From contig JALVDV010000006.1 in assembly GCA_027008775.1 (NCBI GenBank), positions 13,551 through 77,550 on the forward strand: DNA of 64,000 bases, given 5' to 3'. The notes beneath the pieces are model-generated. The model was not told the DNA's origin, did not search any database, and worked only from the letters and a program-made list of their open reading frames with translations. Positions 1 to 51,921 of the stretch are shown here, in pieces (position 1 is the first letter of the stretch; each line of letters opens with the position of its first letter). The DNA comes from Candidatus Moraniibacteriota bacterium. GTDB taxonomy: Bacteria > Patescibacteriota > Minisyncoccia > Moranbacterales > DUUL01. Position numbers and translations under genes: made by a program.

Positions 1-368
1 TTTACCTGGATAAAGATGATTTGTTGGAAGCGGTAAAAATAGCTTCTTTGGTAACAAATAGTCAAAATGGTGAGATAAAACTCAGTAAAAATAAAAATGA
101 CAAATTTATAACTGTCACAGCTCAGTCGGTTGATTTAGGGGAAAATGTTTCCACTGTTAACATTTTAAAAAACTCGGAAGCGGAATTTGAAATATTTTTT
201 AATCACCGCTATTTAATTGAGGGTTTAAGTTGTCCTTTATTTGTGTCTGATAAAATAAAAATGGAATTTAAAGAAGGGAAATCACCGGTTTTGTTTAAAG
301 GGGTTGATGATAATTTTAAAGAATTTTCCGAATTCTTGTATATGGTGATGCCTATTATAAAGGAGTAG
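1..368 (+). CDS. dnaN: DNA polymerase III beta sliding clamp, C-terminal part (5' end lies outside the window)
   Basis: Frame is open from position 3 (YLDKDDLLEAV...). The C-terminal motifs FNHRYLIEGL and KSPVLFKG match the DnaN domain III pattern. A DUF721 gene follows immediately. Confidence 0.7.
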   Translation, partial: YLDKDDLLEAVKIASLVTNSQNGEIKLSKNKNDKFITVTAQSVDLGENVSTVNILKNSEAEFEIFFNHRYLIEGLSCPLFVSDKIKMEFKEGKSPVLFKGVDDNFKEFSEFLYMVMPIIKE

Positions 369-406
369 ATTTTACTTATCAGACTATTAAACTGTTAAGT
401 TATTAA

Positions 407-700
407 ATGAAGTCTTTTGCAGATGCTCTTAAAAAAAGGGTTAGAACAGAAAATAAGGGAAATCTTTCCCTTGATTTTTATACGGTAAAGAAGGCTACCG
501 AGGATGTTTTATTGGATATTTTTGGAAAAATCGGGTTGCAAAATATTAAAGTGACTTTTTATAAGGATGGTTTTGTTTACTTAAATATTTTTAAATCAGT
601 TTGGAAGTCGGAGATTAATTTAAACAGAGGCTTGGTTATAAGTAAAATTCAGGAAAAATTAAAAACGGATAAAATTAAGGGCTTAAAGGTGAGAAATTAA
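407..700 (+). CDS. DUF721/DciA-like small protein
   Basis: 97 aa. The pattern FADALKK...L..Y.V.K....VLLDIFG...IKV.F..DG.VYLNI.SSVW..EIN matches the DUF721 family, which often sits next to dnaN/recF. Confidence 0.55.
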   Translation: MKSFADALKKRVRTENKGNLSLDFYTVKKATEDVLLDIFGKIGLQNIKVTFYKDGFVYLNIFKSVWKSEINLNRGLVISKIQEKLKTDKIKGLKVRN

Positions 701-753
701 AAATTGTATATTACTAAGCAAGGATTTTAAATAAAGAAGTGTAAATTATAACA

Positions 754-3190: not shown

Positions 3191-3715
3191 CTAAAATGGA
3201 TAACAAGCGTGTTTTTTTAGGATGTAGGCTGAAAATAAACCTAATCCTAAAAGTATTATGCCGATTATCAAACATAAAGCAATTAAAGGAGTTGTTGAAA
3301 ATATGGAGTGGATTGTGTATTTTAATTCCAGTTTATCACCCCCAATTCTTTTTACTTCTGGTTGTCCATAGAAGTATGCCAGGCTGTCTATTTTTGGGGT
3401 TTTGAATTTTTTAATATACCCCTCCAGCCAGCCTCCATCCGGGTTTCGCCAAAAGAATAAAATTCCTTCTGGCTTGATGTGATAATTAAAAAATATTTTT
3501 TTAATACTCTTAATACTTTTTTTATTATTCACCCAGACAATTCTATCTAATAATTGTTTGGCAGCTCTATCATCCACCTCCTCTAATAATTCTGCTTTTA
3601 TTGGCAGGTCTTGAATAATGGTGACAATTTCTGGCCCTTCTTTTTTTTGTAAGAAATAAAAACCGGAAATTAAAAAAATAACCCCTAACACAATCATTGA
3701 AAATGATTTCTTCAT
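3191..3715 (-). CDS. hypothetical membrane-anchored protein (N- and C-terminal TM helices)
   Basis: 174-aa ORF with an AGGAGG RBS 6-11 nt upstream of ATG. Both termini are hydrophobic. Confidence 0.45.
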   Translation of the reverse strand: MKKSFSMIVLGVIFLISGFYFLQKKEGPEIVTIIQDLPIKAELLEEVDDRAAKQLLDRIVWVNNKKSIKSIKKIFFNYHIKPEGILFFWRNPDGGWLEGYIKKFKTPKIDSLAYFYGQPEVKRIGGDKLELKYTIHSIFSTTPLIALCLIIGIILLGLGLFSAYILKKHACYPF

Positions 3716-4154
3716 TTTATTCCTCCTTCTGAATTTTATTTTTAATGTGCTTCTTGTTTAAGTATTAAACCACAACAGAAATAAGTCAAGTAATTGTGTA
3801 AATCAATTTTTTAGTAAAGATAAAGTTGTTAGATTGAGGAATTAAAAATTTGTACTTTATTTCTTGAAATAAAAAATATTCATTGACTGATAGGTAACAA
3901 ATAACAAAAATAAAAATTCAACTGATATATAGATGTAATTATTGATATACAGATACGATTATAGTCGCACTATCATACAACCTTATATGATAGTGTAAAA
4001 TTTCTGTTTATTGAGAGAGTTTAATGTATAACTTGATTGGTTGGTGTTGGAGATTAAGATTATCTGTCGGATAAAATATACACCAAATAAATTGTTGTTA
4101 GTAATAAAGTAGGTTGTTGTGAGTAATGATTATAAAACAGTAAGGAGGTAAAAT

Positions 4155-48018: not shown

Positions 48019-48151
48019 AAAAATGATTAGGGATGAAAATTTGAACGGAGAAAAATTGGTACCCCTTAAGGATCTAAATGATACCAATTTTTTGTAGTCA
48101 GTAGTGAGGTAACCAAAAATCTTTCTGCTATACTATTTTTTGGCAATTGAG

Positions 48152-48514
48152 TTATATTATCTCAACCGTATGTCCCGATTGTTCAAGTTTCTTTTTTATC
48201 AACGATATTAGTTCTCCCTTTTTTTGTTCTATTGCCTCAATTTTTTTAATTCGTTCTTGATCATTATTATCTTTTTTTGCCATCTGTTTGGCTTCTGTTA
48301 TTTCTTTGTCAAATTCACTACCATTAATTTTTAAAACTCCATTATCCTCAGTTACCATATTGCTTGGCCAAATAAACTCACCAGAGAGTTCACCATCTTC
48401 ATTAATAAACTTACCTAATAGTCGATTTATATCTTCATCGTAATCAAGTTTATTATAAATTGCTTGAATATCTACTCTTTGTTGTGGTGTTTTGCTTTCA
48501 AATTTTTCCGGCAT
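48152..48514 (-). CDS. hypothetical acidic protein (120 aa)
   Basis: ORF only. Confidence 0.35.
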   Translation of the reverse strand: MPEKFESKTPQQRVDIQAIYNKLDYDEDINRLLGKFINEDGELSGEFIWPSNMVTEDNGVLKINGSEFDKEITEAKQMAKKDNNDQERIKKIEAIEQKKGELISLIKKKLEQSGHTVEII

Positions 48515-48696
48515 AGTTTTTTATTGGTTAATTATTAAACATTTAAATTATATCACAATGTTTCATGATGTGTGATGTTTGGCAGATCTATGAAACCGCG
48601 AAACAGTAGCTTTATCAAATATAGGTGAAAAGGGAAAGGGGTGTAACGATGAATGAGATTACATATTCTGTGTTAGGTGGCAGTTGTGCTGATTTT

Positions 48697-49353
48697 TTAT
48701 TTTTTTCTCAAAACTATTACATCCTGAAAACAAGCAGGTGCTCCCATTCCAAGTGGACTCTCGCTGAGCACGATTAGTTCAATCTGATTGTTAACGGTTG
48801 AATCTAGGATGCTTTGCTTTTCTGATTGGCTGATTAATCCTAGCCCAAGATTGATTACAGGTTGGTTGAGTTCATTTTTGCTATGAACTGTGTTGCCAAT
48901 ATCAACCAGATTAACCATTGCACGAATTAACTCTTTGGAGCCACCCGTTATAGTAAAACTATCGCATTTTTTAGTTTCGCCCCAAGCGCTTCTCTCAACA
49001 GGCGAATAATAACCTTTAATAATTGCGATGCCCAGTGGATAATTACTATTATCTCTGTTAAATAAACATTCATTTATGGTGCAGAGATTGTTGGTAAGAT
49101 TGTATGTTGTATTATTGACTGGTGTTTTAGTTTTGGAGATATTGTTTTCGTTTTGGATCTGAGTCAGTTTATTTTGGAGCAAGACAATTCGTTTTTGCAA
49201 TTTTTGTTCCGAAGTTTTTAGCTTAGAGTTTTGCCAAAAGTAAATACCTCCACCTACTGTTAAAGCGGTTACAATGGCACAAACAACAATTGCCCAGGCA
49301 GTTTTAAGACTTTGAGCTTGTTTTATTGATTGTGAGGTGGTTTGTTTTTCCAT
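48697..49353 (-). CDS. hypothetical membrane-anchored protein with a coiled coil (218 aa)
   Basis: N-terminal TM helix, then a heptad-like region (LKTSEQKLQKRIVLLQNKLTQIQNENN). Confidence 0.35.
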   Translation of the reverse strand: MEKQTTSQSIKQAQSLKTAWAIVVCAIVTALTVGGGIYFWQNSKLKTSEQKLQKRIVLLQNKLTQIQNENNISKTKTPVNNTTYNLTNNLCTINECLFNRDNSNYPLGIAIIKGYYSPVERSAWGETKKCDSFTITGGSKELIRAMVNLVDIGNTVHSKNELNQPVINLGLGLISQSEKQSILDSTVNNQIELIVLSESPLGMGAPACFQDVIVLRKK

Positions 49354-49402
49354 AATTTTGTGAGTTAGCCAGTTTGATTATGTTTTAAATTAAGAAAAAG
49401 TC

Positions 49403-49665
49403 AGCACAATTTTGCACAACGGGTGCGAGTATGAGAAGTTTCGCCGATCTTCTTTTTATTTTTTCTTTCAAGGAACTTTTTGTTATTTACTTTCTGTCAA
49501 CGTATCCGAGTATGCGAAGTTCGCTTTTCGGATTTATTTGATATTATTTGGTTTAACTGATGACTATTTTAACTCACTTTCGCTTAAATTACCACTAAAT
49601 GGAGAAAAGCGAATTTGGGAAAAAGGCGAGCCGAGCCTTTTTCCGCATACTCGATGTTAGGCGAG
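49403..49665. repeat. GC-rich structured repeat unit (family copy 1) ending in GTTAGGC
   Basis: Shares aattttgcRcaacgNNtgcgWgtatgagaagtNNcgcc and ccgcatactSSRtgttaggcga with the copy at 50367..50468. It also contains an internal copy of gagtatgMgaagttcgc. Confidence 0.6.
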
Positions 49666-49742
49666 GGTGAGCGGAACGGAGTGGAGCGAAAGCGCAGCGT
49701 CCCCGTAGCGTTTTCTTTCAAATTTTTTTTGCGGTCGTGGGC

Positions 49743-49771
49743 TTGACAGATAAGTTATTATCTGCTATACT
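49743..49771 (+). promoter_or_regulatory. sigma70-type promoter for the SemiSWEET gene
   Basis: TTGACA (49743-49748), a 17-nt spacer, then TATACT (49766-49771). It lies about 100 nt upstream of the ATG. Confidence 0.5.
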
Positions 49772-49873
49772 AAAATGTCAATAGTTGGGAAATCGTCTTT
49801 TTTAATAACCAAAAGAGAGGTTTCTCACTATTGTGAGGATCTGCTCTTTTAAAACTGAAAAGGAGAAAATCAG

Positions 49874-50140
49874 ATGGAAAATCTATTTGGTTCTCTTACT
49901 CTAGTCCTGGCAGTTACTATGGTAGTAATTGCCTTGCCGAGTCAAATCCGCAAAAACTACCGAGAGAGAAAATGTGGTCTCAGTTTCCTGATGGTACTGC
50001 TGCCACTCGGCGTGTACATATCACGAACTTGCTATGCAATACTGATTAAGTCGTGGTATATAGTAGTGCCGGACTTTCTCGGCGTGATTTTCTCTGCCGT
50101 TCTATTGGCTCAATTCCTTTATTATCGGAACAAGCCATGA
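49874..50140 (+). CDS. SemiSWEET / PQ-loop family sugar transporter (88 aa, 3 TM)
   Basis: The PQ motif LPSQIRKNYRERKCGLSF is present. The gene has three helices, an AAGGAGAAAA SD, and its own promoter and terminator. Confidence 0.55.
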   Translation: MENLFGSLTLVLAVTMVVIALPSQIRKNYRERKCGLSFLMVLLPLGVYISRTCYAILIKSWYIVVPDFLGVIFSAVLLAQFLYYRNKP

Positions 50141-50157
50141 AGATCCGGGTTTAACTC

Positions 50158-50190
50158 AGAGCGTTGACTTAACAGTTGACGCTCTTTTTC
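50158..50190 (+). terminator. rho-independent terminator after the SemiSWEET gene
   Basis: 11-bp stem agagcgttgac/gttgacgctct with two G-U pairs and a 6-nt loop, then ttttt. Confidence 0.55.
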
Positions 50191-50216
50191 ATACGAGCAA
50201 AAAATAATTTGAAAGA

Positions 50217-50468
50217 AAATGTCGCCTAATGGGCGGCGTTTATGCGATCGTGGCGGGATGATGACAAGTCATCAGACCGACATGTCGCACAATCGTCAGT
50301 TGTGCGAAGCTTCGCTGAGCATAGCTGGCGTGTAACGCCGCCCATTGTGCAAAATGAGCGAAGTGAAATTTTGCGCAACGTTTGCGTGTATGAGAAGTCC
50401 CGCCGTGGCGGGATTTGGGCGGAGGCTTTTGTAAAAAGCCGTAGCCGCATACTGCGTGTTAGGCGATG
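50217..50468. repeat. GC-rich structured repeat unit (family copy 2), bounded by GCCTAAT and GTTAGGC
   Basis: GCCTAAT sits at 50224-50230 and GTTAGGC at 50458-50464. A perfect 13-bp inverted repeat aatgggcggcgtt/aacgccgcccatt lies at 50228-50240 and 50334-50346. The palindrome GCGAAGCTTCGC lies at 50303-50314. The subsegment 50367..50468 aligns to copy 1. Confidence 0.6.
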
Positions 50469-50482
50469 TAATTTTCAAAATA

Positions 50483-51013
50483 TTATCTTTGAAATTGCCA
50501 CGTTTCTTTACCATCTTTTATAATCAATTTGCGTTTGACAAAATTCGGTTGTTTGTTATTTCTCTCATCAGGCCCAATCAAAATTTCAAAAATTCCGTTT
50601 TTTGTATCTAGGGTCAAAACTGTACGTGTGTTGTTTGATGATTGGTGCTCGTGAATTCGTGCTGTGTCTTTAAATTTCTGAATTATTTTTCGTGCATGCT
50701 CTAGATTTTCTTCTATTGCTTTATCAAGCTTTTCATCATAATCATTTGCATGAGCACCACCTGTAACTATAATATCAGAAATTTTTCCGCCAGTTTTTCT
50801 TAGGAATTCTTGAAATTTTTCTTCGAGAGACTCATCCCGTATCATGTTGTGTATCATTGCGCCAATCTTAGAATTTTGGTCATAAAGAGCTATGCAGACA
50901 CACATATATAATTCTGTACTGATCAAACGCTCTCCGTTTTCGGCAATTTCGAACCTAAAAGAATCTACTTCAATATCTTCTGGTTGTGGTGTTAACTCAA
51001 ATCTGTTGTTCAT
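50483..51013 (-). CDS. hypothetical protein, CheD-like (chemoreceptor glutamine deamidase fold) - weak
   Basis: CVCIALYDQNSKIGAMIHNM resembles the CheD Cys/His core (GSCVAVCLYDP..KVGGMAH). It is an orphan with no che genes nearby. The gene is flanked by GTTAGGC-type heptamers. Confidence 0.35.
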   Translation of the reverse strand: MNNRFELTPQPEDIEVDSFRFEIAENGERLISTELYMCVCIALYDQNSKIGAMIHNMIRDESLEEKFQEFLRKTGGKISDIIVTGGAHANDYDEKLDKAIEENLEHARKIIQKFKDTARIHEHQSSNNTRTVLTLDTKNGIFEILIGPDERNNKQPNFVKRKLIIKDGKETWQFQR

Positions 51014-51024
51014 AGAATTTTGAA

Positions 51025-51056
51025 AATTATGTCGCCTAACTCGTTTTTATGCGAAT
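51025..51056. repeat. partial copy of the repeat family (tatgtcGCCTAACtcgtttttatgcga)
   Basis: Near-identical to 50217-50247 apart from an 8-nt indel. GCCTAAC lies at 51034-51040, which is 20 nt from the CheD-like start on the opposite strand. Confidence 0.55.
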
Positions 51057-51627
51057 AATGTTTCGTGATAAAAACTAAATATTGACAAAAAGCGAATAAT
51101 TGACGGGATGTAAGTGGGTTTAACCTACTCTTTTTTGTCTAACTTTATTGTACATGAAAAGTCTTATTTTAAAAAGTTTTATTTTACAAGCGAAAAATTT
51201 GTTGAAGGTGCAATTATTCTGCAAAGATGATATTCTCTGAAAACAGCAGAAATTTATTTGTTGTATGTTGAGCAACACTAAAAAGTATTAAAAGTCCGTT
51301 TTAACCCTGCCAAAATGGAACTTGACTTCCATTTTAACCCTGCTATTTTGGCAGTGGAGCGGGAATAAAAATAATTTTTTTCAGATTCCATTGTTGGCAA
51401 AAGAGATTTTTTGTAGGTAGAATTGTGAGTGGAAGTAGTTTTGTTGTTTTTTTTGCTAAGTTAATAAAATTTTCAAAGAGTTTTGTTTTAGTACTTCATT
51501 TTTAATAGATAATATTTGCTAATTGATGAATTTAAACTATTATGATACCCTACTGCTGTAGGGTTGTACTGTTATTTTGCAAAATGTTGGTGTTTGAGGT
51601 GTGTAAAATATAATTTAATTGTAAATA

Positions 51628-51921
51628 ATGTCAAATATGAAAAAGTATAAACGAAGTCAGTTTTATCAAATGGAAAGAACCGTGAAAGGGTTTTCAAATC
51701 ACAGAAGAATTGAGATAATGTTTCTATTAGATAAGAGACCGGAATTATCCGTGAATGAAATTTGCAGGGAATTAAAAATAAATTTTAATACGGGATCTGA
51801 TCACATTAGAAAACTTGCTCAGTCCGGAATAGTTATGAAAAGGGCTGACAATAAAACGGTCAGACACGCCTTAACCGAAAAAGGCAAGGCAATACTGTCA
51901 TTTTGCAAAACATTGGTATAA
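51628..51921 (+). CDS. ArsR/SmtB-family HTH transcriptional regulator
   Basis: RRIEIMFLLDKRPELSVNEICRELKINFNTGSDHIRKLAQSGIV is a wHTH of the ArsR type. Confidence 0.7.
   Translation: MSNMKKYKRSQFYQMERTVKGFSNHRRIEIMFLLDKRPELSVNEICRELKINFNTGSDHIRKLAQSGIVMKRADNKTVRHALTEKGKAILSFCKTLV

Follow-up and report, generated by a model that had tools for sequence, protein, structure and literature searches.

Palindrome-rich repeats that lie at gene boundaries and carry exact copies of the heptamers GTTAGGC and GCCTAAC are found in a 64-kb stretch of contig JALVDV010000006.1 from a Candidatus Moraniibacteriota bacterium. They raise the question whether this AT-rich genome of the Patescibacteria type harbors a gene-cassette system comparable to integrons or an unrelated repeat family. 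The whole stretch is called the window here; coordinates follow its numbering, the plus strand is the window strand, L-numbers denote loci collected from other assemblies and metagenomes, and an arrow in a motif marks the unit boundary. The comparison of these loci indicates that the repeats are probably the recombination sites of an integron-like gene-cassette array. The system follows the logic and geometry of integrons; its recombinase class and site architecture are different.

When the sequence was re-read, the repeats, inverted repeat, palindrome and heptamers listed in the initial annotation were all recovered. Segments are shared between 49408-49446 and 50367-50405 (39 nt, 85% identity), between 49643-49664 and 50445-50466 (22 nt, 86%) and between 50206-50229 and 51016-51039 (24 nt, 79%). 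A perfect 13-bp inverted repeat, AATGGGCGGCGTT/AACGCCGCCCATT, occupies 50228-50240 and 50334-50346, the palindrome GCGAAGCTTCGC is located at 50305-50316, GTTAGGC at 49656 and 50458, GCCTAAC at 51034 and GCCTAAT at 50224. The spacing described around a 176-aa open reading frame (ORF) on the minus strand (50483-51013) is also correct: read on that strand, GTTAGGC ends 20 nt ahead of the ATG (51013) and GCCTAAC starts 18 nt past the stop codon (50483). Of the two long copies and one partial copy distinguished originally, the shared segments are present, while the partition has to be revised. In copy A, a complete site (49493-49664) comes after a truncated 5' half-site (49421-49446). Copy B combines an ORF-less, degenerate unit (50231-50379) with a complete site (50371-50466), the partial copy (repeat C) is a terminal attI-like half-site, and a fourth, degenerate site is added. 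The 256-nt unit B was also considered as one single RNA. It folds well, as the folding of its strands proposed in the initial annotation confirmed (z = -8.0 for the plus strand and z = -6.5 for the minus strand as RNA, z = -6.1 for the minus strand as DNA). Since locus L002 is devoid of the 5' closing strand and a cassette in L018 splits the unit, B is a composite of two sites. A covariance model made from sites of other genomes (model R1) restricts the site family to 48.55-51.06 kb of the window, with scores of 73, 49 and 27 bits, and yields no match at E<=1 in the remaining ~62 kb. The initial annotation had also allowed for an assembly artefact that produces spurious repeats. Contigs do break frequently at such arrays, but a 100% identical arrangement is present in the ENA (ERZ27262687) and Logan (SRR8439053) assemblies and part of it in the NCBI assembly GCA_026992875.1 and in L018; as independent assemblies contain the same sequence, the probability of an artefact is negligible.

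The sites share an elaborate architecture. Scanning species-representative genomes for the 19-base core CCGCATACTNNNTGTTAGGCGA resulted in 24 loci, 22 of which are related intergenic elements, mostly in metagenome-assembled genomes (MAGs) of the candidate phyla radiation (CPR). On the plus strand the unit starts with TCnnnnAAC↓, G, a 3-nt bulge, the 5' strand of the L stem (e.g., CCGAGTATGCG) and AAGT, it continues with stem 2 (10 to >100 nt), ATTTG and stem 3, and it closes with the 3' strand of the L stem (CGCATACTCGG), T and GTTnnnnGA. TCnnnnAAC and GTTnnnnGA form the R box, nnGAGTATGCG and CGCATACTCnn the L boxes. The initial annotation had found the pairing of L boxes by hand unconvincing; these boxes do exist and they covary heavily. 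The integron-cassette geometry that it had read on the minus strand holds in that the heptamers correspond to the R boxes of attC-like sites; the system is not canonical, the sites being longer and the IntI domain missing.

RNAalifold predicted 28 pairs for 21 diverse sites, 16 of them with compensatory changes, and within the L stem such changes affect 10 of 11 pairs. In a covariance-model alignment of 68 sites from 25 sources, 94.3% of the cells are paired compared to 75% in shuffles and 28-47% with slid partners, and double-sided changes amount to 367 cells compared to 116 in shuffles (a level reached by 0 of 500 shuffles); because this alignment was fitted to the model, the counts lean towards structure. 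AAC/GTT is invariant or near-invariant in the 68 sites, two G.T(U) wobbles are near-invariant (65/68 and 57/68), and the junction nucleotides GAAGU / AUUUGGGUGA / GAACC are conserved. Site lengths range from 57 to 233 nt, compared to ~55-141 nt for canonical attC sites, and a three-way junction, a 3-nt bulge and G.T wobbles take the place of obvious extrahelical bases. When DNA energy parameters are used, the site strand has the better fold of the two strands in 46 of 53 sites (p = 6e-9). From a heuristic stem finder only hits of at least 10 bp were kept; 8-9 bp gave many false positives. Many sites, including the window at 50349-50358, have loops of the type GAGCG-N-AGCGGAG in common, which may be a protein-binding motif, and L029 carries an additional GC-rich hairpin module (GTATAGCCGCTGTTGTACGATGTGCCGGAGCGTAGCGGAGGC...GTACAAC) nested in or beside its sites (205-260, 1005-1060, and 2065-2120).

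Strong covariation, invariant G.U pairs and conserved junction nucleotides would equally suit structured non-coding or cis-regulatory RNAs, such as stabilizers in 3' untranslated regions (UTRs), antisense RNAs or guide RNAs, that merely accompany accessory genes, and the fold of B as RNA is more stable for the plus strand (-127 kcal/mol) than for the minus strand (-93 kcal/mol). This explanation is nevertheless improbable. The sites match no Rfam family, even at E<=10: with Rfam 15, only three tRNAs reached the gathering score in the window and nothing credible was found at E<=10 in 49200-51400. The similarity starts abruptly at AAC↓ with no conserved promoter upstream, and most cassette ORFs are encoded opposite the strand that folds well. 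Local RNAs also leave unexplained the 9-mers that are complementary over cassettes of 0.4-1.5 kb, the insertion/deletion junctions at AAC and the strict polarity towards a recombinase gene.

Four independent lines of sequence comparison place the boundary, and with it the putative recombination point, at the invariant AAC. The similarity of the A-type units among 14 unrelated loci starts precisely at AAC↓G. L023 and L024 have one whole unit in common, with identity that climbs from 19% to 87% on entering the unit at the left AAC↓ and drops from 97% to 20% on leaving it at the right one. Over A and B, L018 and the window are 98% identical. L018 has exactly one cassette more (with a 213-aa ORF), a gain or loss between strains; this cassette is located between GCGCAAC↓ and CTTAAC↓GTTCGCG, and the corresponding window sequence is GCGCAAC↓GTTTGCG. 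At the junction of cassette 1, L018 carries a different cassette. In the sister strain L002, the sequence corresponding to window 48028-50233 is replaced, with the break at TAAT↓GGG, the 5' end of B.

The two ends of a unit belong together. The GTTnnnnGA of a site complements the TCnnnnAAC at the far end of the following gene and not the adjoining one: among R'/R'' pairs of the same cassette, 20 of 51 are perfect (9/9; mean 7.61), while adjacent pairs remain at about baseline, with 7 of 80 perfect and a mean of 6.25. In L033, four consecutive cassettes possess four different complementary pairs, TCAGATAAC/GTTATCTGA, TCGCACAAC/GTTGTGCGA, TCGCCTAAC/GTTAGGCGA and TCGTTTAAC/GTTAAACGA. This comparison of own and adjacent pairs, together with a GTTnnnnGA/TCnnnnAAC shuffle test, was used in place of an inverted 9-mer statistic, which was uninformative owing to AT-rich noise and an 'opposite strand' control that is symmetric by construction. 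Read on the minus strand, the order G↓TTnnnn - ORF - R''-L''...L'-R' is the layout of an integron cassette; with a crossover at AAC/G↓TT, the first bases of a cassette would therefore complement its own R''.

The arrays are linked to a recombinase gene. The terminus of the array in related genomes is a half-site nnnnYAAC↓TAGTTATATGCGAA, located ~70 nt upstream of the recombinase ATG. The form nnnnYAAC↓WAnTTATATGCGAA is found in L015, L021, L033-L038 and 54 metagenome loci, and nnnnYAAC↓TAGTTATATGCGAAnTTGTTG precedes the ATG by ~70 nt in loci that were picked by protein similarity. Four seeded loci encode a recombinase with PF00589 and PF13495 (Pfam scan of ORFs) and three more retain remnants (tblastn); the gene or remnant always follows directly after the last TCGCCTAAC and shares its strand with the sites. 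The reverse approach gave the same picture: L032-L036, picked by similarity of the recombinase protein alone and with upstream sequence present, contain 2-5 sites each (E<=0.001), every one on the recombinase strand and upstream of the gene, with none downstream. The sites are situated between the genes of an upstream block, which is encoded on the opposite strand and made up of small accessory genes. The cargo is of the accessory type and encompasses toxin-antitoxin, Fic, KilA-N, glyoxalase, NUDIX, methyltransferases and a GIY-YIG-domain protein (weak match). Ten complementary end pairs were counted upstream of the recombinase, where 0.42 are expected, and one downstream.

The 54 metagenome loci were selected solely by the fixed right part of the half-site. 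All 48 model matches are located upstream of it (90 kb) and none downstream (144 kb), all on the strand of the half-site. Of 27 loci with 1 kb or more of upstream sequence, 22 contain a site, and of 40 loci that offer enough room, 29 have a recombinase start no more than 400 nt away. Repeat C of the window, which is not followed by a recombinase, resembles in this respect about a quarter of the metagenome loci. The 46 unique loci show 26 different hexamers before AAC, while the right side of the half-site is conserved (65% compared to 38% pairwise identity), a pattern that looks like an attI-type site after many different insertions.

These distributions also bear on the MITE-like or scattered regulatory repeat that the initial annotation had put forward as an alternative. 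Dispersed repeats of the miniature inverted-repeat transposable element (MITE), repetitive extragenic palindrome (REP) or BOX type, with terminal inverted repeats and unrelated to cassette capture, would fit the modular make-up, the ~30-nt inverted repeats around each gene and the truncated copies. However, the other 62 kb of the window are free of copies, the copies of a locus are clustered on one strand, target-site duplications are not evident, and 48/48 copies reside upstream of the recombinase. Sites that are clustered, co-oriented and tied to a recombinase gene make dispersed repeats a very improbable explanation. A peel-and-paste transposition of the IS200/IS605 type (target TAAC↓ = right end) was set aside, as the linked enzyme is a tyrosine recombinase; HUH transposases are missing among the 25 commonest of the 130 Pfam families matched by flanking ORFs.

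Several further observations concern the recombinase end of the arrays. In L010 the recombinase gene (2103-2408, 3403-3963) is split by an insertion of ~1 kb with a 298-aa ORF, and short recombinase remnants are located in L023 (2377-2749), L024 (7536-7673) and L012 (4865-5005), so that loss of the recombinase beside otherwise intact arrays seems to be common. Contigs often end 0-270 nt from the half-site or within a site, as in L037, L038 and many metagenome loci (e.g., L045, L050, L054, L058, L071, L077, L090); assemblies seem to be interrupted by the arrays, which MAGs probably under-represent. L062 and L088 reside on one 190-kb contig, UOWO01000029.1, as two attI-like half-sites, neither with an adjacent recombinase. 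Arrays also occur in TPA_asm MAGs labelled 'uncultured Gammaproteobacteria' (L014, L015, L017, L021, L027, L030, L031), in a 'Cryomorphaceae' MAG (L020) and in a 'Thermodesulfovibrionales' MAG (L016). The recombinase of L021, the one that was searched, has its closest homologues in Patescibacteria. The bins with labels outside the CPR are probably contaminated or mislabelled; a real spread beyond the CPR is possible.

The linked enzyme is a tyrosine-type recombinase of ~280 aa (282 aa in L021). The catalytic motif R..K..HxxR..H..Y is visible in the recombinases of the related loci and not in the window. PF00589 and PF13495 are matched at E values down to 4.5e-44 in L015, L021 and L030, and the best relative in the PDB is XerA from P. 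abyssi (4a8e, E 2e-47). The cutoff of NF040815, the NCBIfam family XerA_Arch that is named 'site-specific tyrosine recombinase/integron integrase', is passed by two of the three intact recombinases tested (L015, L021). The family comprises more than 5,277 proteins at E<=1e-30 and is very large in the CPR. It corresponds to the XerA-like 'Cand' subgroup, which was described as Xer-related by Smyshlyaev et al. with an assumed Xer role (PMC8138268). By the definition used in the field it is not an IntI (PMC9668308). As the recombinase is XerA-like and does not contain the IntI-specific insertion, the system is not a canonical integron. In the window itself, the initial annotation had reported no intI, and the integrase is indeed absent: protein scans found none, and tblastn with related recombinases detected neither a gene nor a remnant in the 64 kb. 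With a terminal half-site but no recombinase gene, the window array is an integrase-less array comparable to a cluster of attC sites lacking an integron integrase (CALIN).

As the enzyme is Xer-like, a Xer/dif system with stacked hitch-hikers is a serious rival, although we regard it as unlikely. The recombinase would be a chromosome-dimer resolvase, the half-site its dif site, as in XerS/difSL and XerH/difH, and the cassettes would resemble integrative mobile elements exploiting Xer (IMEX) that pile up at dif as CTX-type elements do. In single-recombinase Xer systems dif is located beside the gene, and CTX uses folded single-stranded DNA together with Xer. The similarity to XerA (4a8e, and NF040815 for L015 and L021), the missing IntI insertion and the near-ubiquity of the family in the CPR, where it is assumed to be Xer-like (PMC8138268), fit this view. 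Against it, the sign of the GC skew does not change from one flank to the other, either in the window (+0.25 to +0.38) or in L032-L035, which places these loci away from a skew switch. The flanking housekeeping genes are co-oriented and not convergent, one site arm varies between loci, and the units are single small genes with elaborate sites and not of phage or island size. Mechanistically, this rival is little different from cassette capture.

For cassette capture, the following mechanism is proposed. The mobile unit would extend from one invariant AAC to the next, i.e., on the plus strand, AAC↓ - L stem/three-way junction - GTTnnnnGA - gene - TCnnnnAAC↓. In a circularized cassette the TCnnnnAAC would pair with the cassette's own GTTnnnnGA, forming a long imperfect hairpin of R box, 3-nt bulge, L box and branched tip; for cassette 1 of the window, the circular junction would read ...ATGTCGCCTAAC joined to GTTTGCGTGTATGAG. 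The ~280-aa Xer-type recombinase ('Cand'/XerA-like) would bind the R and L arms, strand exchange would take place at AAC, most likely on the folded plus strand, which equals the 'bottom' strand of integrons, and cassettes would be inserted at the fixed attI-like half-site AAC↓TAGTTATATGCGAA beside the recombinase gene. The use of the folded plus strand, cleavage at AAC and resolution by replication are suggested by analogy and by the strand asymmetry.

Several points weigh against this interpretation. The case for recombination is comparative throughout, and activity at the window locus is uncertain, since the window contains no recombinase. All recombinases tested fail the integron integrase model TIGR02249, with scores of 207-228 in two stretches compared to a cutoff of 265, and the alignment with VchIntIA (2a3v) splits at a segment that has 21 residues in place of 64 in IntI (178-241); the enzyme thus does not contain the IntI-specific insertion thought to be necessary for attC recombination. 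It belongs to a very large family assumed to supply the CPR Xer (PMC8138268) and could have a housekeeping role. With 57-233 nt, conserved junction nucleotides and G.U/G.T pairs, the sites look like structured RNA, and in 31 of 51 cases the two ends of a cassette do not match perfectly. Cassette 2 of the window and some others have a promoter of their own and are directed towards the recombinase. Finally, site B2 of the window appears chimeric inside the L stem, for which a crossover at AAC alone gives no account.

The window array encompasses four or five units and the terminal half-site. Repeat C, TGTCGCCTAAC↓TCGTTTTTATGCGAA (51030-51056, plus strand), matches the architecture of the recombinase-linked loci, and its crossover would be located at or after the AAC at 51038-51040. 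Cassette 1 (50380-51040, minus strand) is composed of site B2 with R' GTTAGGCGA (50458-50466), the 176-aa ORF and R'' TCGCCTAAC (51032-51040); its ends form the 32-nt inverted repeat I1, and R' and R'' complement each other perfectly (9/9). The initial annotation had called the ORF CheD-like, for which there is faint support, the best PDB match being 2f9z_C (E 0.079); Pfam gave no match. At the equivalent position L018 has a 233-aa ORF (39-737, plus strand). Both proteins have an N-terminal Cys-containing motif that, by eye, recalls CheD, and BLASTP detects no similarity between them.

Site B2 (50371-50466, plus strand) is a complete attC-like site with R'' TTGCGCAAC, L stem, three-way junction and R' GTTAGGCGA, and it is recognized by model R1 with 73.3 bits (E 4e-16). 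Its L strands, 5' GCGTGTATGAG and 3' CGCATACTGCG, originate from different site lineages, which suggests that the site is a chimera. It is preceded by the ORF-less unit B1 (50231-50379, plus strand, ~149 nt), defined by sequence and fold as a degenerate site with hairpins. B1 is delimited by TCGCCTAAT↓ (50222-50230) and GCGCAAC↓ (50371-50379) and carries an internal GTTGTGCGA at 50300-50308. Cassette 2 ('A-type', 49502-50230, plus strand) encodes an 88-aa PQ-loop/SemiSWEET-like protein (49874-50140, plus strand; Pfam PQ-loop 1e-5). The complete attC-like site A (49493-49664, plus strand; 49.3 bits with model R1) has a long AT-rich second stem, R'' TCTGTCAAC (49493-49501), which is part of the neighboring unit, and R' GTTAGGCGA (49656-49664). 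That neighbor is a truncated cassette remnant (49421-49501, plus strand; repeat D1, regex matches) with only the 5' half of a site (GGGTGCGAGTATGAGAAGTTTCGCC), which starts after TTTTGCACAAC↓ (49410-49420) and terminates in TCTGTCAAC↓. Cassette 3 (48683-49410, minus strand) is bounded by R' GTTGTGCTGA (48683-48692) and R'' TCAGCACAAT (49401-49410), as marked by the inverted repeat I7 (48684-48706 / 49387-49409), and it encodes a membrane-anchored protein of 218 aa (48697-49353, minus strand). The degenerate fourth site, TATCACAAT↓...GTTAGGTGG (48551-48680, plus strand), scores 27.3 bits with model R1 (E 6e-4 over all loci, 2e-5 locally).

On the left, the segment 47325-47364, to the left of the NUDIX gene, is 88% identical to 49449-49488 inside the truncated remnant (repeat D2), and 44-52 kb has low GC content and deviant GC skew, suggesting that the array formerly reached at least 47.3 kb, with older, decayed cassettes farther left. 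On the right, where the recombinase gene would be located, 570 nt are non-coding (51057-51627) and contain a 31-nt hairpin-forming repeat in two adjacent copies (51295-51325, 51328-51358) with the core CCGTTTTAACCCTGCCAAAATGG. The following ArsR-family helix-turn-helix gene (51628-51921) has 25-nt direct repeats on either side (51567-51591, 51893-51917; 88% identical) that include the palindrome ATTTTGCAAAAT and may be operators.

Cassette 2 stands for a type of unit that brings its own expression signals. Site A is followed by a GC-rich extension (49665-49710), a promoter TTGACA-17-TATACT (49743-49771), a structured 5' UTR (49772-49873), the 88-aa ORF, a terminator (50158-50185) and the conserved 3' end with R'' TCGCCTAAT (50222-50230); promoter and terminator were predicted by scans. 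The 5' ~370 nt and 3' ~40 nt of A-type units are 83-93% conserved (blastn) in at least 12 MAGs around unrelated ORFs, and in these 'expression-ready' cassettes the module of promoter and 5' UTR is ~90% conserved across CPR classes while the genes differ. The chassis of site, 46-nt GC-rich extension, promoter, ~100-nt 5' UTR with ribosome-binding site and ~40-nt 3' end (window 49665-49873 and 50192-50230) is found in MAGs labelled as different CPR classes, at L009, L011, L012, L013, L018, L021, L023, L024, L027 and L028. The promoter spacer contains an operator-like palindrome CAGATAA-N5-TTATCTG (49747-49765), and a UTR hairpin CUCGC-UAUU-GCGAG varies in a compensatory manner (CUCAC/GUGAG in the window). 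Searches of phage and plasmid collections gave no match to the A-type unit, and viral contigs none to a 22-mer.

Among known systems, sedentary chromosomal integrons are the closest in layout. Like the superintegron of V. cholerae with its attC sites of the Vibrio cholerae repeat (VCR) type, the arrays have a tyrosine recombinase gene divergent from a co-oriented array. Shared with sedentary integrons are a fixed attI-type site adjoining this gene, single-gene cassettes, imperfect-palindrome sites with invariant AAC/GTT R boxes and a second L stem, a putative crossover at AAC with first cassette bases that complement the own R'', sites that are homogeneous within a lineage, and accessory or toxin-antitoxin cargo. 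In contrast, the recombinase here is a ~280-aa XerA/'Cand'-like enzyme devoid of the IntI-specific domain. The sites of 57-233 nt have a three-way junction, G.T wobbles and a 3-nt bulge in place of the classical extrahelical bases, the R box of 9 bp is part of a complementarity reaching ~30 nt, a promoter and 5' UTR are part of some cassettes, and the hosts are Patescibacteria. The window locus resembles CALINs in its three or four clustered sites with no recombinase nearby. It differs from CALINs in having sites that deviate from canonical attC and in retaining a terminal attI-like half-site.

IMEX and CTX elements integrate at dif by XerCD, i.e., by a Xer-type enzyme, and form tandem arrays at the site. 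A folded single-stranded substrate, with one strand exchange that would be resolved by replication, is a possible further likeness; here, however, the arrays are not located at a GC-skew switch, the units are single genes and the incoming cassette supplies one site arm. In Acinetobacter, pdif modules are gene modules between inverted Xer-type sites that are reshuffled between replicons. They share with the present arrays the discrete gene modules bracketed by inverted sites, while pdif sites are simple, double-stranded, 28 bp long and on plasmids, compared to the large structured sites here, which form polar arrays on the chromosome next to a recombinase gene. Archaeal integrons (Ghaly et al., 2022; PMC9668308) were likewise found in MAGs and outside the classical bacterial phyla. 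The archaeal IntIs possess the IntI-specific domain, and IntegronFinder detects the canonical attC sites that accompany them (PMC9668308); the recombinases described here do not contain this domain.

The literature was searched for integrons, attC-type arrays, structured RNAs or tyrosine recombinases in CPR/Patescibacteria and no description of the present system was found; coverage was incomplete and an earlier description is possible. Beyond the single locus, we lean towards the view that Patescibacteria carry a phylum-wide cassette-capture platform with a Xer-type recombinase devoid of the IntI domain and with large three-way-junction sites, which includes the 'expression-ready' cassettes. 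Such a platform would have arisen independently as an analogue of integrons, or it would be a surviving relative of the Xer-like ancestor from which they descend. As integrons are defined by IntI and its special domain, surveys that require this domain and the canonical attC model would miss the system. If the interpretation is true, the arrays explain the frequent contig breaks beside the recombinase gene and are under-sampled in MAGs, and a plain Xer-like enzyme can run structure-specific cassette capture, which bears on the origin of integrons from Xer recombinases. A new family of folded recombination sites with a compact recombinase would be available, possibly for engineering, and the chassis of promoter and 5' UTR would touch the question of how cassettes are generated. 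For the very small genomes of the CPR, the system would constitute a mechanism for the variability of their gene content.

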